Virus record (IMG/VR): IMGVR_UViG_3300033153_010811
Location: 1-57,593 of that record
DNA: 57,593 bases
Reading direction: 5' to 3' (one strand)
Source of the DNA: a virus
Lineage: Duplodnaviria; Caudoviricetes
Each line of letters begins with the position of its first letter. The first letter of the stretch is position 1. The notes beneath the pieces were generated by a model, which was given only the letters and a program-made list of their open reading frames with translations, was not told the DNA's origin and did no database searches. Below are positions 7,665 to 57,593 of the stretch, piece after piece. The position numbers and the translations under genes are program-made.

Positions 7665-7997
7665 ATGAAGAAGAAAATCTATTTAGCGTGTCCTTTCAGC
7701 CACCCAGACCCGAAAGTAAGAGAGTGGAGAGTTGAACAGGCAAGCAAAAAGGCCGCTGAATTAATGGAGTCTGGATATTTAGTTTTCAGCCCTTTAAGTC
7801 ATTCTGTCCCGATTTCTAAATATTGTCGAGTTGACCCTTGTGATAATGATTTTTGGTTAGAGCAGGACCTCTGGATTCTTAGCAGTTGTGATGAGATCCG
7901 TGTTTTGTGTTTACCTGGATGGGAAAGATCTGAAGGTATAAAAGTGGAACTTGAGATTGCTAAGTCTTTAGGAAAAGTTTTATATTTGACATGTTAA
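7665..7997 (+). CDS. DUF1937/nucleoside deoxyribosyltransferase-like protein
   Basis: IYLACPFS...FSPLSHS...GWERSEGIKVE. Confidence 0.8.
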   Translation: MKKKIYLACPFSHPDPKVREWRVEQASKKAAELMESGYLVFSPLSHSVPISKYCRVDPCDNDFWLEQDLWILSSCDEIRVLCLPGWERSEGIKVELEIAKSLGKVLYLTC

Positions 7998-8866
7998 TAC
8001 GAGACCACTATCAAAATTTTAAGAGGTATAATCTTCCGAAAGCACAATTAATTATTGCCGACATCCCTTACAATATTGGTATAAACGCATATGGCTCCAA
8101 CCCGGCATGGTATATTGACGGAGATAACTCAAAAGGCGAAAGTGATCTTGCCGGCAAGAAGTTTTTCGCAACTGATGAGAATTTCAATTCTGCTGAATTT
8201 ATGCATTTTTGCAGCAAGATGATGAGAAAAGAGCCTAAAAAAAAGGGTTGTGCGCCTGCAATGATAATCTTTTGCTCGTTCGAGCAGCAACACGGATTAA
8301 TTGAACTTGCAAAACGGTATAACATAAAGAAATATATAAATTTAATTTTTAGAAAGAATTTTAGCGCGCAAGTTCTAAAGGCAAATATGAGAATTGTAAA
8401 TAACGCTGAATATGGTTTATTATTGTTTAGAGATAAGCTTCCAAAATTCAACAACAACGGAAAAATGATATTTAATATAATTGATTGGGAAAAGGATAAA
8501 AATACCAGCCCGTTATATGAAAAAATTCATCCTAATCAAAAGCCAATCCCTTTGCTCGAAAAACTAATAAATATTTTCACGGATGAGGGTGATGTGGTAG
8601 CCGATCCTGTAGCTGGGAGTGGATCGACAATAATAGCAGCAGAAAATCTTAACCGGAAGGCTTATGGTTTTGAAATAGATAGGAAAATTTATCAAAAAGC
8701 AGAAAAATGGATTAATTATAATAAAAAAGTTCGAGAAGAAATAAACAAAACGCTATTTTCACAAACGCTTCTAAATAAAACAGATCCAGGGCAAATGTAT
8801 TTATGGGGGAATTATGGGAACAAAACTGAAACGCAGAAAAAAGACCCGAAAGCAGAAAATAGCTGA
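7991..8866 (+). CDS. N4C/N6A DNA methyltransferase (beta class)
   Basis: DIPY motif IV before HPNQKP and DPVAGSGST motif I. Confidence 0.9.
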   Translation: MLIRDHYQNFKRYNLPKAQLIIADIPYNIGINAYGSNPAWYIDGDNSKGESDLAGKKFFATDENFNSAEFMHFCSKMMRKEPKKKGCAPAMIIFCSFEQQHGLIELAKRYNIKKYINLIFRKNFSAQVLKANMRIVNNAEYGLLLFRDKLPKFNNNGKMIFNIIDWEKDKNTSPLYEKIHPNQKPIPLLEKLINIFTDEGDVVADPVAGSGSTIIAAENLNRKAYGFEIDRKIYQKAEKWINYNKKVREEINKTLFSQTLLNKTDPGQMYLWGNYGNKTETQKKDPKAENS

Positions 8867-8955
8867 GGGGCATCTAACTTGTAGATCAGAAAAAACGCCA
8901 AGGTCTCTGATTAGGGCGTTAAACAAAATGTCGTTAGAGGAGATACAAATTAAAC

Positions 8956-9159
8956 GTGTCCAAACTATCCATGATGCAGGAACAATCAATACGGGACGAT
9001 AGGGGGAATTGCCGTTGCCCGTATTGTGGGAAATATCGCAAACGATCTGAGTTTGAGGAACAATCCCCTCATGTACCATTGATCGATGCAGACAGTAAAA
9101 TTATGGGCCATCTCCATGTTGCGGCAGCGTGCAAATATTGCTTTGAAGCGAAATATTAA
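8956..9159 (+). CDS. Small Zn-finger protein
   Basis: CPYC...CKYC. Confidence 0.55.
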   Translation: MSKLSMMQEQSIRDDRGNCRCPYCGKYRKRSEFEEQSPHVPLIDADSKIMGHLHVAAACKYCFEAKY

Positions 9160-9161
9160 AA

Positions 9162-9896
9162 ATGGTTAGAACAAATAATATAGTTTCCTTGTCCGGCGGG
9201 AAAGACAGCACGGCCATGCTGTTGATGATGATTGAACATAAAATACCAATACATTCAGTAGTTTTTTTTGATACTGGATGGGAATTTCCACAAATGTATG
9301 GACACATAGATCTTATAGAAGAAAAGACAGGAATAAAAATATGGAGGTTGCACCCAAGATTGCCATTTGAATATTGGATGCTTCACAGACCCATTGTAGC
9401 AAGGAAAGGCAAATTAAAAGGTAAAATACATAGAATTGGTTATGGTTGGCCTTCTATGTCAAGAAGATGGTGCACAACAGAGAAAGTTGGAGCGATTGAA
9501 TATTTTTCCAAACCTATTCCAAATGTAGTTAATTGTATAGGATATGCTTCTAATGAAGATAGAAAGGTTTCTAATCCAAAATATAAAACAAGATTTCCTT
9601 TACAAGAATGGGATATAACAGAAAAAGACGCCTTAGAATATTGTTATAATAAGGGATATAATTGGGGTGGATTATATAAATTATTTAGGAGGGTGTCTTG
9701 TTATTGTTGCCCATTGCAAAGAATTGACGAATTAAGAACATTAAGAAAGCATTTTCCAGATCTTTGGAAAAAAATGTTAGAAATGGATCAAGCAAGACCA
9801 GAACATAACATAGGGTTTAAGGGATATAAAACAGTTAAAGATTTAGAAAGAAGATTTTATTATGAAGATTGTCAAATTAAATTGCCGTTGTCGTAA
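9162..9896 (+). CDS. PAPS-reductase-family protein
   Basis: SLSGGKDS PP-loop, DTGWEF, RWCT, RVSCYCCP. Confidence 0.9.
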   Translation: MVRTNNIVSLSGGKDSTAMLLMMIEHKIPIHSVVFFDTGWEFPQMYGHIDLIEEKTGIKIWRLHPRLPFEYWMLHRPIVARKGKLKGKIHRIGYGWPSMSRRWCTTEKVGAIEYFSKPIPNVVNCIGYASNEDRKVSNPKYKTRFPLQEWDITEKDALEYCYNKGYNWGGLYKLFRRVSCYCCPLQRIDELRTLRKHFPDLWKKMLEMDQARPEHNIGFKGYKTVKDLERRFYYEDCQIKLPLS

Positions 9897-9979: not shown

Positions 9980-10615
9980 TTGGAGGTTGTGTTGCAATAC
10001 TTAAAAATCAAAAATTGGAAAAAATATCAGCATTATAAAGACCGAAACCCACCTTGGATTAAATTTTACCACTCAATTCTTGATGATTATATTTACTCTT
10101 GCTTGCAAGATGATAGCAAATTGCTACTTATAACATTACTTTTATTAGCGGGGAAAACCAATAATAAAATCCCATATGATATCAAATGGATACAAAATAA
10201 ATCTATGATTAAGAAAAAGATAAATTTAAAAGAATTATTAAGTTCTGGCTTTGTTTTTGTTGATGATGGTGATAGCAATTTGATAGCAGATGAATATCAA
10301 GATGCTACCCTTAGAAGAGAAGAGAAGAGTAAGAGAAGAGAAGAGAAGAAATTTGTACCACCCACCGTTGACGATGTAATAAAATATTTTCAAGAAAATG
10401 GGTATTCCGAAAAATTAGGAAAAAACGCTTTTTATTATTATGAAGAAGGTGATTGGAAAGATAGCCGAGGTCAATCCGTCCGAAACTGGAAACAGAAAAT
10501 GCGCGGGGTTTGGTTTAAGCCAGAGAATAAGCAAAATAACGATGCCGGCAGAGTCCAACCAAAGGAATTTAAAACACCTGATTATCTTAAAAATATAACT
10601 AAAGATATAGGTTAG
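9980..10615 (+). CDS. Phage replication initiator-like protein
   Basis: IKNWKKYQHYKDRNPPWIK N-terminus, REEK linker, FVPPTVDDV...WK C-domain. Confidence 0.7.
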   Translation: MEVVLQYLKIKNWKKYQHYKDRNPPWIKFYHSILDDYIYSCLQDDSKLLLITLLLLAGKTNNKIPYDIKWIQNKSMIKKKINLKELLSSGFVFVDDGDSNLIADEYQDATLRREEKSKRREEKKFVPPTVDDVIKYFQENGYSEKLGKNAFYYYEEGDWKDSRGQSVRNWKQKMRGVWFKPENKQNNDAGRVQPKEFKTPDYLKNITKDIG

Positions 10616-10714
10616 ATTTAATCAACTACGAAATGGCGAAAAGTGAAGAAAAAGCAATAAGAAAATCTTTATTGTTTTTTATCAGGCAAAAACACAATAA
10701 ACAGGAGGTTAGGG

Positions 10715-11032
10715 ATGAATGATGAAGCGGGTTGGAAACTAGTTGGGTTTGCGTTGATGTTATTGAGTGCCGCAATAATGGTATTTTCCATTATCGGGGT
10801 GTATGACTCTTTTTGGCATGTCCCGGCAAAAAACGCAGCGATATATCAACTATCTCAAAAAAATGAATTGTTGCAGGCCGAAAACCGTAAAATGAAAATA
10901 GCTATGCGTTTTGAGAATCTTTTCACAACCTTTGCGAACCCTAATCAAATGATCGACTTCAAAGAACTCGAAAATTACATCTGCGAAAAGCGCGGGTTCT
11001 GTTTAGATCCGGTCGATAAGAGGGTAAAATAA
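10715..11032 (+). CDS. Hypothetical membrane-anchored protein
   Basis: N-terminal TM helix; GGAGG RBS. Confidence 0.65.
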   Translation: MNDEAGWKLVGFALMLLSAAIMVFSIIGVYDSFWHVPAKNAAIYQLSQKNELLQAENRKMKIAMRFENLFTTFANPNQMIDFKELENYICEKRGFCLDPVDKRVK

Positions 11033-11496
11033 TGCGCGTGTTAGCAATAGACCCAGGTCCTGTCGAGTCGGCCTATGTTCAATGGGATGGGGAAAATATT
11101 GAAGGGTTTGGCCTGGAAGATAATGAGGCTATGCTTGATTTAGTAAGTTCGGTCGGGGAAGCTCCTAAAAATATGGTTATCGAACAAGTACGCTCATATG
11201 GGATGCCAGTCGGTGCTACCGTTTTCGACACGGTGTTTTGGACAGGCCGATTTTGCCAGGCCTGGCATGGTGATTTTTGGCTGGTGCCGAGAATAGAAAT
11301 CAAGCAACACATTTGCCATGATTCCAGGGCGAAGGATAGCAATATCAGACAGGCCCTTATTGATAGGTTTGAGCCAGATTTAAAACCGCGACAAAGACCT
11401 AAAGGAATTTTAAAGGGTGTTAAAAAAGACATCTGGCAAGCATTTGCCTTAGCGGTTTTTTTTGTGGACGTGCGAAGTAATCAGGTGCGATTGTAA
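11032..11496 (+). CDS. RuvC-like Holliday junction resolvase
   Basis: VLAIDPG, VIEQ, D.WQAFALA RNase H-fold motifs. Confidence 0.8.
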   Translation: MRVLAIDPGPVESAYVQWDGENIEGFGLEDNEAMLDLVSSVGEAPKNMVIEQVRSYGMPVGATVFDTVFWTGRFCQAWHGDFWLVPRIEIKQHICHDSRAKDSNIRQALIDRFEPDLKPRQRPKGILKGVKKDIWQAFALAVFFVDVRSNQVRL

Positions 11497-11501
11497 ATAT
11501 A

Positions 11502-11722
11502 TGCGAGCCAACGAAAAACTGAAACCTACTGGCGGTGTGCGAGCCAATATAAAAATAAAGCCCAGGTATGGATTGCGAGCCATTACATTTTTGAAACCCA
11601 GTGAAAGCATGCGAGCCAACATTGTATTAAAACCCATACGATCTATGCGAGCCATCTCGATATTGAAACCCAAGCCCAATGTGCGAGCCAGCAGATGCTT
11701 GAAATCCACAAAATTGATGCGA
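11502..11722 (+). ncRNA. TIGR-like guide array 1 (6 x 36-nt units)
   Basis: TGCGAGCCA at 11502, 11538, 11574, 11610, 11646, 11682, each followed by N9, a TGAAACCCA-like loop repeat and N9; terminal TGCGA at 11718. Confidence 0.9.
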
Positions 11723-11751
11723 AAACTTAACCCAAAAAAAGGAGAATAATT

Positions 11752-12378
11752 ATGCAATTCAAAATTGAAGAATTAAAAAAACGGTACGACAAAAAGAGTG
11801 TGGGGCAATGTGTCGCTGAAGCGAAAAGCCTTAACGAAAAAATGATCCAGCGAGGGGAGGAACTTGTCAGCTTACTCTGGTATCTCGAAAAAACCAAGCG
11901 ATTTCGCGAGTACAAAGGGTATGAGAAAATTGCTTTCAATGTTTTTGTCTTTGAAGTTTGCCACATTCCATACAACCGCTATAGGCAGCTTGCTTATGCT
12001 TACAATTGGTACCCCGTAGAATCGAGGGAATACGGTCCCCAGACCATTCAGAGGATTAGAAGTAAGGTCGGGGTTGTAAAAATCCCGAAGGTGCTGGGCG
12101 AAATTAAGAAAAAGGTTAGTAAAATAACGGCACCAGAGAAAAAACGAGAGGCGATTGAACAGGTTATTAAAAAATACGCGCCTCCGAAAAAAACTATCCC
12201 ATCGACCGATACGAAAGCATATTGGAAAAGCAAGTATGAGGAATTGTTGGAAAAGTATAAATTTCTCGAAAAAGAGAACGATGAAATGCGCAAACAATTA
12301 GCAAGGCAAAGAGTACCGCTGGAAAATTTCATGAAGATCCGGAACCTCATTCAAGAGGATTCGGTTCTATTACAGTAG
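11752..12378 (+). CDS. Unknown protein embedded between TIGR arrays (possible HTH plus C-terminal coiled coil)
   Basis: AGGAG RBS; GYEKIAFNVFVFEVCHIPYNRYRQL resembles DUF3102-like HTH segments (weak). Confidence 0.75.
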   Translation: MQFKIEELKKRYDKKSVGQCVAEAKSLNEKMIQRGEELVSLLWYLEKTKRFREYKGYEKIAFNVFVFEVCHIPYNRYRQLAYAYNWYPVESREYGPQTIQRIRSKVGVVKIPKVLGEIKKKVSKITAPEKKREAIEQVIKKYAPPKKTIPSTDTKAYWKSKYEELLEKYKFLEKENDEMRKQLARQRVPLENFMKIRNLIQEDSVLLQ

Positions 12379-12383
12379 AGTAG

Positions 12384-12499
12384 CACAAGCCGTCTCAATC
12401 ATAAAACCCAACGGAGCAATGCGAGCCAAAAAAGCCTTACTGAAACCCGTGGGTTACATGCGAGCCAAGGGGTGTTTGAAACCCACCGAATTGATGCGA
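12384..12499 (+). ncRNA. TIGR-like guide array 2 (3 units, one with a 12-nt spacer A)
   Basis: Degenerate first edge CACAAGCCG, edges at 12420 and 12459, terminal TGCGA at 12495; loop repeats at 12402, 12441, 12477. Confidence 0.85.
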
Positions 12500-12528
12500 A
12501 ACCATAACCCAAAAAAAGGAGAAAAATT

Positions 12529-13386
12529 ATGAACACCAAATGGAACGAAATATCGAACGAATTAAACTATGCGATTAAGAATTACAATGGTATAGTAAAA
12601 CAGATCGTACAGATCAAAAACCGAGCACATGCTTATGGGATTGACCCGAAACACGAAGTTCTAATCCATGGCAAGATCGCAAAAGACGGCACTTCCAGAA
12701 TGCAGGGCCTGGAATCATTGAAGGGTGTGGCAGCGCGAAAGATCGGTCGAATCCTGAAGGACTTCCCGATCTGGACCGAATGGCTTGACAATGTTCCGGG
12801 GATCGGTATGGTCATCGGCGGGCAGCTTATAGCACTTTATTATTTTAAGAATATCCCGATCTGCTCTAAATGCGGCGCTGACCTGAACGATAATTTCGAT
12901 TGCCCCATCTGCACAATGAAGGCGAAAGGACAGGGTATCCTTAAGTTCAGAGTGGAGCTTCGAGACTTCCCGACAATATCAAGCTGGTGGCATTTCATGG
13001 GCCGGCACGTAATAAAGGGGAAAATACCAACAAAAGGAAATGTTAAAAAACTAAAGGCCGGCGATTCGGGAAAGCTGGTCGATTGGTCATTCAGTGGTAA
13101 GAAGTTAGGATACGATTTTAAGGAGTCAATCAATAAAATGCCCAGCGACAACAAATACAAAGCATACGCAGAAAAACGAAAGCGGTACCGTGAGGAAACA
13201 CACCCGAACGCCACAAAGGGACACCGCCATAACATGGCATGGAACGAGGCCTGGAAGTTGTTCCTATCGCATTTTTGGCAGGTCGATCATATACTGAGCG
13301 GTGCAGAGATGACTAAGCCGTGGTGTGTTCAACACGGGGGGCATGACCAGAGTTCGATAATCCGACCGTTTTATTTTGAAACTTAA
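12529..13386 (+). CDS. tasA: Nop/IS110-like RNA-binding domain protein, TasA-like (no nuclease domain), with CxxC-CxxC insertion
   Basis: WLDNVPGIGMVIGGQLIA and FPTISSWWHFMG match IS110/Nop-domain motifs; C-terminal GHRHNMAWNEAWKLFLSHFW helix; flanked by 36-nt dual-repeat arrays. Confidence 0.8.
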   Translation: MNTKWNEISNELNYAIKNYNGIVKQIVQIKNRAHAYGIDPKHEVLIHGKIAKDGTSRMQGLESLKGVAARKIGRILKDFPIWTEWLDNVPGIGMVIGGQLIALYYFKNIPICSKCGADLNDNFDCPICTMKAKGQGILKFRVELRDFPTISSWWHFMGRHVIKGKIPTKGNVKKLKAGDSGKLVDWSFSGKKLGYDFKESINKMPSDNKYKAYAEKRKRYREETHPNATKGHRHNMAWNEAWKLFLSHFWQVDHILSGAEMTKPWCVQHGGHDQSSIIRPFYFET

Positions 13387-13396
13387 TTATAAAATA

Positions 13397-13689
13397 TGCG
13401 AGCCACGCCGCGCCTGGAACCCAAAGGAAATGTGCGAGCCATTTTCAATTTGAAACCCACTTGACATATGCGAGCCGGTCGCTAATTGAAGCCCAAAGAT
13501 CGAATGCGAGCCATTACTTCTCTGAAACCCAGCGAAACGGTGCGAGCCAAAGAGCTGTTGAAACCCGTGGGTTACATGCGAGCCATGAGAGGCGTGAAAA
13601 CTACTGAGATGATGCGAGCCAAGAATTGTTTGAAACCCATTGATGTCGTGCGAGCCACCACCATCTTGAAACCCATTGGCGGCATGCGA
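13397..13689 (+). ncRNA. TIGR-like guide array 3 (8 x 36-nt units)
   Basis: Edge repeats at 13397, 13433, 13469, 13505, 13541, 13577, 13613, 13649; terminal TGCGA at 13685. Confidence 0.9.
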
Positions 13690-13695
13690 CCTCAC

Positions 13696-13747
13696 CCCAA
13701 AAACCCCCTGAGAAGCCCTCAGAGGCTTTTCTCGGGGTTTTTTTGGG
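13696..13747. terminator. Bidirectional intrinsic terminator closing the TIGR locus
   Basis: AAAAACCCC-CTGAGAAG...CTTTTCTC-GGGGTTTTTTT hairpin between convergent units. Confidence 0.75.
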
Positions 13748-13799
13748 ATAGGTAAGGGGAGAGATAGGTAAGAGTAAAAGGGTCCTTAAAAAAGCCGCC

Positions 13800-14519
13800 C
13801 TAATTTTTAATAAAAACGCATTCTTTCGGACGGTTTTTCCTAACATTTTTCCCCCGAAGTCCCTGATCAATATCTGTCAGCCTAGTAAATGGCAGCCAAT
13901 TCGCTGATTCATTTTCGCAGCAAATTATTTGGCCGCGCCGAGATTTAACCCATGTGGCGAGTTTATGATAATTTAATTTATTTTCCGTATATAATCTCCC
14001 GGGCGTGTCTTGATACGGAGGATCGATGAACCATGTTGCGGTAATATTTGGAGCATCTTCGTATGATCTATGTAAAATTTTCCAGTGTTGTATTTTTGGA
14101 TGCCAGAATTTTATTTTTAAAATTGTGTTATGATACCAATGTTTTACTGCTATTTTAGTAATTGTATTGACTTTTACATTAAGCCCGCCTGTGCCAATAT
14201 TAGCGGACATTCTGAGGATATTTTTAAGACCTTGAGGGAAATCATCAAAATATTTAATATCATTGATTTTATCCCCAGCATTTACTTTTTTGGGAATTTT
14301 GTTAATATAATTTAACGCATCTTGCGATTTAACGAAATTCCATGCCTCTATTGTTTTTAGGTTCGTATCAAGTAAAATAATATTATGTTTATACCACCGC
14401 AAAGAATAAGCAGCCCCACCGGCAAATGGTTCGATTATAGTTTTATGTTTTGGTGGGGGATATTTGTTTACCAACATTCCTTTCCCCCCGTAATAATTGA
14501 AAACAATTCTATGTTTCAA
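13800..14519 (-). CDS. D12-class (Dam-like) N6-adenine DNA methyltransferase
   Basis: YYGGK, IEPFAGGA, FIDPPY. Confidence 0.9.
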   Translation of the reverse strand: MKHRIVFNYYGGKGMLVNKYPPPKHKTIIEPFAGGAAYSLRWYKHNIILLDTNLKTIEAWNFVKSQDALNYINKIPKKVNAGDKINDIKYFDDFPQGLKNILRMSANIGTGGLNVKVNTITKIAVKHWYHNTILKIKFWHPKIQHWKILHRSYEDAPNITATWFIDPPYQDTPGRLYTENKLNYHKLATWVKSRRGQIICCENESANWLPFTRLTDIDQGLRGKNVRKNRPKECVFIKN

Positions 14520-29345: not shown

Positions 29346-29945
29346 ATGGATTATAATTTTCTGATGCAATCCACAATGCAGATATTCAATAGATATTGCA
29401 TTTATCATATGGTTATGAGTAAGGAGGTGAAGGGCGATGTGATTGAATTAGGTGTTGGAACAGGGAAGAATTCTTTTCACCTGGCACGCGTGGTGAATGA
29501 TCTATCGCTCAACAAGAAAGTGTATGCTTGTGATACTTTTCAGGGTCTTCCATATACAGATGAGGGAACAGGAATAGAAAGTTCCCTGAAAAAAGGGGAG
29601 TGGTTTTACATAACTTTGGAACAATTCAGATTGGAAATTGCTAAAGAAAAATTGAATGGCGTTTTGATTCCTATTCAGGGGTTAATAGAAAAAACGCTTC
29701 CAGCGCAATTGAAGGATAAGAGGTTCTGTTTTGCCTGGTTGGATATGGATTTGTACAAATCCACTGTTTCAGGTTATAAATTCTTAGAAGACCGAATTTC
29801 GGTAGGCGGTATTCTGGGATTCCATGATTACAAAAATAAAATGTGCCCTGGAATTGTGAAGGCGGTGGATGAAGAAGTGAATAAGAATAAGTTCAAACAA
29901 ATCTTTTGCAGGGGAAGTAGTATCTTTTTCAGAAGGGCGGGATAA
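29346..29945 (+). CDS. TylF/MycF-family O-methyltransferase
   Basis: GDVIELGV, DTFQGLP, LDMDLYKS, GGILGFHDY. Confidence 0.85.
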   Translation: MDYNFLMQSTMQIFNRYCIYHMVMSKEVKGDVIELGVGTGKNSFHLARVVNDLSLNKKVYACDTFQGLPYTDEGTGIESSLKKGEWFYITLEQFRLEIAKEKLNGVLIPIQGLIEKTLPAQLKDKRFCFAWLDMDLYKSTVSGYKFLEDRISVGGILGFHDYKNKMCPGIVKAVDEEVNKNKFKQIFCRGSSIFFRRAG

Positions 29946-29949
29946 GAAT

Positions 29950-30585
29950 ATGGATGTGAGTTTGCTGGAGTATTTGGGGGATACATTACATTGGTTCCCG
30001 GAGAAGGGTATAGGATACTATCCAGTGAGTAATGGAAAGAAATATGATCAAGATTATTTCAATAAATACGTAAGGTATGAAAAAACTGAAATGGGTCGAG
30101 GGATCAATACTTTTAGAAAGGAATTAGTAAGTAAATATACACAAGGAAAAGTTTTAGATATTGGGATAGGGTGTGGTTCTTTCTTGAAAACATATAAGAA
30201 TGGTTTTGGATATGATATAAATCCAGTTGCAAAAGAATGGTTAGTTAAAAACAAACTTTGGTATGATCCATACAAACAAGATATTGAAATGTTTGCTGGA
30301 ATTGCTTTCTTCGATAGCTTGGAGCATATAGAAGATTTCAGTTCCCTGTTGCGACGCATGAAAAATCAGTTCTTGTTTGTTTCGATCCCAATATTCAGGG
30401 ATTTGCCTCATCTGTTACAATCGAAGCACCTTCGAAAGGATGAGCATTATTATTACTTTACTCAGACTTCTTTTATAGATTTCATGACGAAAGGATTGGG
30501 TTTCTCTTTATTTGAAGTTCGCGATGATGAGATTGGATTAGGCAGAGAAGATATTTGGACATTCGTATTCAAAGGAAGGGCGTAG
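29950..30585 (+). CDS. Class I SAM-dependent methyltransferase
   Basis: VLDIGIGCG, FDSLEHI. Confidence 0.85.
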   Translation: MDVSLLEYLGDTLHWFPEKGIGYYPVSNGKKYDQDYFNKYVRYEKTEMGRGINTFRKELVSKYTQGKVLDIGIGCGSFLKTYKNGFGYDINPVAKEWLVKNKLWYDPYKQDIEMFAGIAFFDSLEHIEDFSSLLRRMKNQFLFVSIPIFRDLPHLLQSKHLRKDEHYYYFTQTSFIDFMTKGLGFSLFEVRDDEIGLGREDIWTFVFKGRA

Positions 30586-57164: not shown

Positions 57165-57218
57165 AGATAACGATTAAGTCAGCCGCCGTTATCGATCGGC
57201 TGGACTGGCTGGTTATAT
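57165..57218 (-). repeat. attC-like site (54 bp)
   Basis: ATATAAC-CAGCCAGTCCAGCCGAT...CGGCTGACTTAATC-GTTATCT. Confidence 0.8.
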
Positions 57219-57593
57219 GTTAGCACGGACGGCCTAAACACCACAACGGCAGAGGGAAATGGAGCGCTATTTTTACTGCCGCCAAATTTTAATCGCCCTG
57301 GAACAAACCATATATCTCCCTTGCTTGCATATCTCTGCCACCACTTTGTGTCTGTCCGAGCAGGGACAAGACAAACTACAAGATGTCCTTGTAATGCTGT
57401 CTCATAAGCTTTTTTCATCCACTTGCCTATCTCTCGGCCATAGGGCGGATTTATCCAACATCGACTATCCCATTCTTTTTCAAATAATCTTAATTGACCA
57501 TCAATTATCAATTTGTCTGTTTCGCAAAAATAATCCGTATAAGCCCAACCACAAGCTTTAAAAACGTTTTCAATAATGGCTTGCGCCACAGGC
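57179..57593 (-). CDS. Phage N6-adenine methyltransferase domain (5' end beyond right edge)
   Basis: CWINPPYGREIGKW, LVPARTDTKWW, GRLKF, APFPS. Confidence 0.85.
   Translation of the reverse strand, partial: PVAQAIIENVFKACGWAYTDYFCETDKLIIDGQLRLFEKEWDSRCWINPPYGREIGKWMKKAYETALQGHLVVCLVPARTDTKWWQRYASKGDIWFVPGRLKFGGSKNSAPFPSAVVVFRPSVLTYNQPVQPIDNGG

Follow-up and report, generated by a model that had tools for sequence, protein, structure and literature searches.

The TIGR-TasA locus described here lies on a linear IMG/VR virus record (IMGVR_UViG_3300033153_010811; CheckV completeness 79%), the whole 57,593 nucleotides (nt) of which were analyzed and are referred to as the window. The gene content is that of a tailed phage, with terminase, portal and tape measure genes, Erf/exonuclease/NinB recombination genes and several DNA methyltransferases. 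The locus forms a single run on the plus strand flanked by the gene of a RuvC-like resolvase and, in convergent orientation, by that of a Dam-type methyltransferase, and consists of three arrays of the tandem interspaced guide RNA (TIGR) type plus two genes in the order array 1, ORF208, array 2, tas, array 3 and terminator (Table 1). The subject of this study is ORF208, an open reading frame (ORF) of 208 amino acids (aa), and its relation to the arrays and to the Tas protein encoded by the following 285-aa ORF. Both ORFs are open on the plus strand, and the ATG of ORF208 is preceded by GGAG 8 nt upstream.

TABLE 1. Features of the TIGR-TasA locus and its flanking genes, in window positions.
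Feature	Positions	Strand	Description
RuvC-like resolvase gene	11032-11496		phrog_1770; stop 6 nt before array 1
TIGR array 1	11502..11717	+	Six 36-nt dual-repeat units, edge TGCGAGCCA, loop TGAAACCCA
Array-end leader 1	11718..11751	+	34 nt: truncated edge repeat TGCGAAAAC, TTAACCCA, A-run, GGAG, up to the ORF208 ATG
ORF208	11752..12378	+	208 aa, basic; helical N-domain 1-145, C-terminal long helix 154-207
TIGR array 2	12383..12494	+	Degenerate unit ~12383-12419, 39-nt unit at 12420, 36-nt unit at 12459
Array-end leader 2	12495..12528	+	34 nt: TGCGAAACC, ATAACCCA, A-run, GGAG, up to the tas ATG
tas	12529..13386	+	285 aa, nuclease-free (TasA type), Nop domain
TIGR array 3	13397..13691	+	Eight 36-nt units (13397-13684) plus terminal truncated edge repeat TGCGACC
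Rho-independent terminator	13695..13747	+	Hairpin, then U-run
Dam-type methyltransferase gene	13800-14519	convergent to block	Pfam and PHROGs matches

TIGR Arrays and the Tas Protein

Each array unit is built from an edge repeat (TGCGAGCCA), a 9-nt spacer A, a loop repeat (TGAAACCCA) and a 9-nt spacer B, which together span 36 nt. The three arrays hold 16 regular units (15 of 36 nt and one of 39 nt) and one degenerate unit. They display the alternating edge and loop repeats of 8-12 nt, the spacers of ~9 nt and the 36-nt units that characterize dual-repeat TIGR arrays, in which edge and loop repeats are combined with spacers in the same design (Faure et al., 2025; PMC12045711). Tandem Repeats Finder reported no arrays because the units are less than 70% alike, and the units were parsed by script. 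All three arrays terminate in a 3′ truncated edge repeat, TGCGA(A/C), from which arrays 1 and 2 lead directly into the leaders of the two genes. The only terminator follows array 3, with none inside the array-ORF208-array-tas-array block; it folds at -32.4 kcal/mol (z -4.5), and none of 200 shuffles (0/200) folds equally well. No Rfam family was detected within 10500-14500.

An identical 27-nt stretch, TGAAACCCG-TGGGTTACA-TGCGAGCCA, is common to array 2 (12441-12467) and array 3 (13559-13585). The spacer B contained in it, TGGGTTACA, agrees at 8/9 positions with the loop repeat TGAAACCCA read as its reverse complement and, being a near-inverse of that repeat, looks like a guide copied from the array DNA itself.

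Nuclease-free TIGR-TasA is the commonest Tas type and is carried mostly by phages. The Tas protein of the window matches the NCBIfam model NF052498 (TIGR_Tas_endo, “TIGR-Tas system RNA-guided endonuclease”) with an E value of 2.2e-19; the alignment covers 10-213 of the 215 positions of the profile, and its 70 bits stay under the equivalog cut-off of 100. The protein also matches phrog_4285 at 5.7e-10. Pfam detects no nuclease domain (HNH, RuvC) within the 285 residues, and the Tas profile match begins at residue 21; on account of the missing nuclease domain, the protein is assigned to TasA. The alignment of the Tas family shows a near-invariant C-terminal His272 and Tyr282. Furthermore, a CxxC..CxxC insertion (C112, C115, C125, and C128; window 12862-12912) is invariant in 46 aligned Tas homologs and probably represents a zinc ribbon within the Nop domain. 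For one Tas homolog, the source gives the label of a Zn-finger protein.

In published dual-repeat systems, precursors are cut in the middle of the edge repeat to yield 36-nt TIGR guide RNAs (tigRNAs; PMC12045711, section 5). The cut is attributed to paired Tyr and His residues of the Nop domain, situated on a C-terminal loop, and the TasA-tigRNA complex is described as binding DNA and repressing transcription (Xu et al., 2026; 10.64898/2026.09.09.750476).

Conservation of ORF208 Beside tas

The association of ORF208 with TIGR-Tas loci was followed from both genes. Retrieval of metagenome loci with ORF208 confirmed 17 loci among 73 pattern matches. A 36-nt-periodic array lies beside the ORF208 homolog in 17/17 of them, and tblastn places Tas on the same strand in 11/17; the six loci without Tas are contigs of 1.0-1.7 kb which end in or near arrays. 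Homologs away from arrays were not found in this set. The N-terminal extensions of two database ORF208 homologs are themselves translated arrays (MRA..LKP).

Retrieval with a Tas profile yielded 27 IMG/VR loci (33-69% identity), in which a hidden Markov model of the ORF208 family was applied beside tas. An ORF of this family adjoins tas on the same strand in 23/27 viral loci, corresponding to ~16/20 once the near-duplicates L034-L039, L020/L021, and L027/L028 are collapsed. Two of the misses end at tas (L022 and L043) and a third is cut upstream (L024), which leaves L042 as a true miss. Among eight species-representative genome loci found with the Tas profile, six carry an ORF208-family gene, namely those of a Pseudomonadota metagenome-assembled genome (MAG), Smithella sp. 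SCADC, two Deltaproteobacteria MAGs, a Desulfobacteraceae MAG and a Candidatus Methanoperedens MAG. In the two genome loci that lack the gene, Tas itself is represented by distant relatives alone (25% identity in one case, a partial match in the other).

The gene order is ORF208-tas in the clade of the window. The reverse order, tas-ORF208, is seen in the distant clade as well as in L003, L013, and L046, and in this arrangement an array mostly separates the two genes. When the identity matrices of Tas and ORF208 were compared across 34 loci, they correlated with a Pearson coefficient of 0.95 and a Spearman coefficient of 0.70, and 0/2000 Mantel permutations reached as high a value. As a comparison of sequences, this correlation shows co-inheritance, not contact. 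ORF208 diverges faster than Tas, with a mean pairwise identity of 0.30 vs 0.48. The claim that ORF208 is a dedicated partner of a nuclease-less Tas is borne out in the genomic sense by the three sets of loci and by the correlated divergence. The ORF208 gene accompanies tas in dozens of related phages and prophages. A co-fold of Tas with ORF208 scored 0.00, a value which counts neither for nor against binding. Neither ORF208 nor Tas had a match among GenBank phages by tblastn, and an IMG/VR scan with the ORF208 alignment returned 0 loci.

Three further observations deserve mention. In L042, a 135-aa ORF with a weak match to MarR-type helix-turn-helix (HTH) proteins (2411-2815; E 1.4e-4) follows tas and an array in the place where ORF208 would be expected, which suggests a replacement of the partner. 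In L041 (3190-4855), a record of 97 kb from IMG/VR, no array separates the two genes; the ORF208-family gene is placed immediately upstream of tas, and the array comes after tas. Finally, the tas-array-ORF208 module occurs on contigs binned as Desulfobacterota-type, Pseudomonadota and archaeal (L046-L051, L050 being the contig of the Candidatus Methanoperedens MAG); this spread across domains reflects either a carrier host range spanning domains or binning noise.

The ORF208 Protein Family and Its Predicted Fold

A word-indexed search recovered 31 ORF208-family proteins of 134-276 aa, the window's own included, none of which bears a functional name. The family is considerably larger when searched with a profile of the N-domain, which matched 281 clusters (at 50% identity) at E<=1e-3 and 139 at E<=1e-10, most of them 190-260 aa long. 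Compared with its closest relative in L001, ORF208 shows 76 synonymous and 42 non-synonymous codon differences over 201 codons. By these sequence comparisons it is a real, conserved gene. The protein is basic, with an isoelectric point of 9.7 and 32 K+R vs 17 D+E in the N-domain, where invariant aromatic and Arg residues are abundant.

The AlphaFold2 model of ORF208 is all-helical without beta strands, with a predicted local distance difference test score of 88 for the full protein and 92.7 for the N-domain alone. It consists of a compact helical domain (1-145), a short linker and one helix of ~55 residues (154-207), a shape which agrees with the coiled coil suspected in the first-pass annotation. 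When the N-domain was compared with 48,161 chains by an exhaustive structure aligner, a ParB DNA-binding domain ranked first (6s6h_B; Z 5.7, 94 residues, root-mean-square deviation 3.8). Six ParB-family DNA-binding domains stand among the top 24 chains, all aligned over residues ~29-145; the others are those of P1 ParB (1zx4; Z 5.2), Spo0J (1vz0; 5.1), KorB (8qa8; 5.1, and 1r71; 4.6), and VirB (3vwb; 4.6). The indication of a ParB-type HTH in ORF208 therefore consists of fold matches at Z 4.6-5.7 to six ParB-family domains, alongside which there is no signal at the level of sequence or profile.

Other searches added little to this picture. With the full ORF208 model, VIA-align matched nothing but coiled coils, all of them to the C-terminal helix. 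A search of PDB sequences with HMMER profiles likewise had no meaningful outcome for ORF208, and two BFVD matches (probability 0.97-0.99) are unnamed and uninformative. DUF3102 and Plasmid_parti_N, which had emerged as leads from the ESM Atlas (0.90-0.91), were not borne out by Pfam scans. Pfam matches to PF02195 and PF17762 are absent from ORF208 and from its 29 close and 79 distant relatives, and the N-terminal CTPase domain of ParB (PF02195) is also absent from five phage records which carry the system.

A Conserved Array-End Leader Precedes Both Genes

The ends of arrays 1 and 2 had been described as nearly the same sequence, and the 41-nt strings at 11713-11753 and 12490-12530 are indeed identical at 38/41 positions. 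On the upstream side, their likeness continues for another ~20 nt, entering spacer B and the last loop repeat. Repeated modules of array, terminal truncated edge repeat, ribosome-binding site and gene, as postulated for the locus, are seen before both ORF208 and tas. Across the close clade, the leader design TGCGAAA..AACCCAAA..GGAG..ATG is kept before both genes. This was examined in the 75 nt upstream of ORF208 homologs (14 loci) and tas homologs (11 loci), where nearly all leaders follow one plan: a truncated edge repeat (TGCG, then bases rich in A or T) and 3-9 further nt precede AACCCA, after which come an A-rich stretch, GGAG and the ATG. AACCCA lies <=40 nt upstream of 13/14 ORF208-homolog starts and 7/11 tas starts as opposed to 8/2000 random 40-nt phage windows, so that the likeness of the leaders exceeds chance. 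The four tas starts without AACCCA have one-base variants or AAACCA. Both leaders of the window are predicted to be unstructured.

The degree to which the two leaders of a locus resemble each other varies. In L004, L005, L015, and L016, the tas leader starts with TGCGTTT and the ORF208 leader with TGCGAA or TGCGCA, whereas in L001, as in the window, the two leaders are nearly alike. The leader type of the window is also carried by L003, where the edge part before tas is degenerate, and by L002 (tas leader only). In L012 (40-290), the array upstream of the ORF208 homolog has drifted repeats (TACGAGTCA / CATAACCCA), whereas its final unit and the leader that precedes the ATG revert to the canonical TGAAACCCA / TGCGAAAC..AACCCAAAGGAG. 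Hence, the earlier notion of a duplicated module of array end and ribosome-binding site holds as regards the near-identity of the two copies, but their origin by local duplication was rejected because the same leader design recurs clade-wide. By comparison of the leaders, the near-identical pair is a case of subclade-level homogenization over a conserved leader design. To our knowledge, a conserved array-end leader is undescribed in the literature on TIGR-Tas systems.

Elsewhere in the window, genes for at least four DNA or other methyltransferase-like proteins, a PAPS-reductase-like protein and a nucleoside 2-deoxyribosyltransferase-like protein are found at 7665-9896, 13800-14519, 29346-30582, and 57182-57589. 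This cluster of modification genes points to a heavily modified phage genome.

Comparison With Known TIGR-Tas and ParB Systems

Operons of tasParB and tasA with arrays between the genes exist among dual-repeat TIGR-TasA systems (Faure et al., 2025; PMC12045711), so that a two-gene architecture of TIGR-TasA has been published before. TasParB owes its annotation to HHpred, which returned various ParB domains including ParB-like CTPases; the references cited for this concern the ParB/Srx fold, and TasParB is predicted to dimerize via its C-terminal region (PMC12045711, section 44 and Discussion). The locus of the window resembles these operons in several respects: a second gene of uncharacterized function is operonic with a nuclease-free tasA in a phage context, dual-repeat arrays with repeats of ~10 nt lie upstream and downstream of the genes and between them, the C-terminal region of the partner is predicted to dimerize, and the operon is conserved as its flanks vary. 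In contrast to TasParB, however, ORF208 lacks the N-terminal domain of ParB (no PF02195 and no beta strands) as well as any ParB similarity at the profile level; homology to a ParB domain, detectable by HHpred in TasParB, is not seen in ORF208 by Pfam, hhalign or the model. No ParB or ORF208-like sequence was found in the text supplements of PMC12045711, a survey which does not extend to figure S14. In the literature, the name TasParB was found only in PMC12045711, and the search brought up no further paper that deals with accessory genes of Tas. That ORF208 belongs to the published TasParB family is a serious possibility, if one falling short of even; otherwise it would represent a distinct, analogous partner. 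The partner may thus be a second, clamp-less family within an architecture that has been reported before.

The ParB proteins themselves show a similar mixture of likeness and difference. The HTH domains of ParB, KorB, Spo0J, and VirB are the best fold matches to residues 29-145 of ORF208, and ParB proteins dimerize through a C-terminal element. ORF208, on the other hand, has neither the N-terminal ParB/Srx CTP-binding domain (GERR motif) nor sequence similarity to the family, and no ParA partner or parS-like site was identified for it. Lacking a CTP-binding N-domain, it cannot form a sliding clamp.

The stand-alone TasA repressor (Xu et al., 2026; 10.64898/2026.09.09.750476) shares with the present system a nuclease-free Tas and arrays on both sides of tas. 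It acts alone and no partner gene is discussed in the available text of that study (“ParB” and “accessory” occur 0 times there), whereas a second protein is fixed here. For arrays which abut or enter coding sequence, the same study proposes that guide maturation and Tas translation may be linked.

Proposed Role of ORF208

Taken together, the balance tips slightly in favor of ORF208 being a dimer-prone, basic nucleic-acid-binding accessory protein which, in one large clade, accompanies nuclease-free TasA as a fixed partner in the operon. By analogy with the reported ParB-like protein, it is likely a helper of TasA as an RNA-guided DNA binder. In the mechanism we propose, the array-ORF208-array-tas-array block would be transcribed as one RNA, and Tas, with its C-terminal His/Tyr pair, would cut this precursor in each edge repeat to produce 36-nt tigRNAs, as published dual-repeat Tas proteins do. 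Cuts in the terminal truncated edge repeats would free two mRNAs beginning with the same unstructured, A-rich leader of ~30 nt (..AACCCAAAAA-GGAG-ATG). Guide production would thereby be coupled to the synthesis of ORF208 and Tas, both proteins being made together with the guides. ORF208 would then act with the TasA-tigRNA complex on DNA, its C-terminal helix pairing two copies and its N-domain, similar in fold to the HTH of ParB/KorB, contacting the DNA. Given such an N-domain and a pairing helix, ORF208 could stabilize, bridge or extend the RNA-guided roadblock by which TasA on its own is known to repress transcription. A role of this kind has been put forward for TasParB, but ORF208 has no ParB CTPase clamp domain.

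A more specific version is put forward tentatively, and its probability is low. According to it, ORF208 would constitute a distinct partner family and the system a two-protein TIGR-TasA subtype, in which Tas cleavage at terminal pseudo-repeats turns one transcript into guides and two leader-matched mRNAs, and a clamp-less dimer resembling the DNA-binding domain of ParB serves as effector or bridge at TasA-bound DNA and may also recognize the arrays.

Several observations weigh against this role of ORF208. In L042, where both flanks are visible, tas occurs without an ORF208-family gene, and published assays show TasA of other clades to function with no partner. ORF208 has no family in Pfam, PHROGs or NCBIfam, and for its relatives, 29 of them close and 79 distant, Pfam returned coiled-coil noise only. 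Alignment of its profile by hhalign with 5 and then 33 genome-derived ParBs gave probabilities of <=1.5%, and Foldseek against PDB found nothing at E<=0.001 for either the full model or the N-domain. As Z values of 5-5.7 are common for helical proteins, the likeness to ParB DNA-binding domains rests on the recurrence of one family and not on Z. The promoter scan predicted 11 sites vs 9.5 expected, not above shuffles, and no promoter was placed. A search of the whole window for self-targets of spacer pairs gave 6 matches at <=3 mismatches vs ~8 in shuffled controls, and matches of single 9-mer spacers inside the locus are at chance level; with no target of the spacers in this phage, the system appears to point outward. 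Furthermore, DNA binding, dimerization, co-transcription and terminal-repeat cleavage are all steps that we infer.

Alternative Explanations

Regulation of the operon itself offers an unlikely account, in which ORF208 would be an HTH transcriptional autoregulator of the array-tas operon without a part in targeting, comparable to the small regulators of many defense and mobile-element modules. Its HTH-like fold and basic charge, its place inside the operon (as first gene in the clade of the window) and the MarR-like HTH ORF at the equivalent place in L042 are consistent with such a role. With 208 aa and a coiled coil of 55 residues, however, the protein is much larger than typical operon regulators, and its distant-clade homologs are encoded downstream of tas and of an array. 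In addition, the translation leader common to ORF208 and tas suggests a matched output of both proteins rather than expression at the level of a regulator. No operator-like palindrome was found either, no search aimed at one having been made. The same leader is the starting point for a role on the RNA side, since it is better conserved than the array repeats, as in L012 with its canonical leader and diverged repeats. ORF208 would in that case bind the precursor, for example at the leader or repeats, and assist the tigRNAs or the two mRNAs in their processing, loading or stability. The invariant aromatic and Arg residues of the N-domain could be suited to this, and the part played by array boundaries is left open in published work. 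We regard this as quite improbable, as the nearest folds are DNA-binding domains and dual-repeat Tas proteins have been reported to process their arrays in E. coli with no partner present (PMC12045711; 10.64898/2026.09.09.750476).

Arrays flank the ORF208 gene in every locus, and the protein could alternatively serve the arrays as DNA, be it in array maintenance, in the acquisition of guides or in a ParB-like use of the tandem repeats as centromere-like sites. The half-units common to arrays 2 and 3 and the spacer inverse to the adjacent loop repeat would fit array-internal copying, and no adaptation machinery is known for TIGR systems according to the Discussion of PMC12045711. Yet ORF208 contains no domain of a recombinase, nuclease or polymerase, the annotated genes of this phage include no ParA-like partner, and most TIGR systems have arrays without an ORF208-type protein, which makes this role very unlikely. 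Closest to being refuted is the suggestion, also raised in the first-pass annotation, that ORF208 is unrelated cargo which landed between array halves by recombination of the repeats. The near-identical array ends could be scars of such an event, and the gene order is permuted in some relatives. This explanation is rejected because the gene is fixed beside tas at 35-84% Tas identity in phages, bacterial MAGs and the Methanoperedens MAG, and because Tas and ORF208 diverge in a correlated manner; moreover, not one of the 17 loci retrieved with ORF208 lies away from arrays.

Implications

If ORF208 is the published TasParB, the value of the present locus is smaller and consists of a documented example and a description of its domains, among which the CTPase domain is lacking. 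If the two-protein subtype holds true, it would provide an initial clue to the function that nuclease-free TIGR systems have for phages. In either case ORF208, which is inherited together with TasA in phages, bacterial MAGs and an archaeal MAG, is the obvious first candidate for a second component, and the conserved leader offers a testable link between guide maturation and the expression of the system's own genes.

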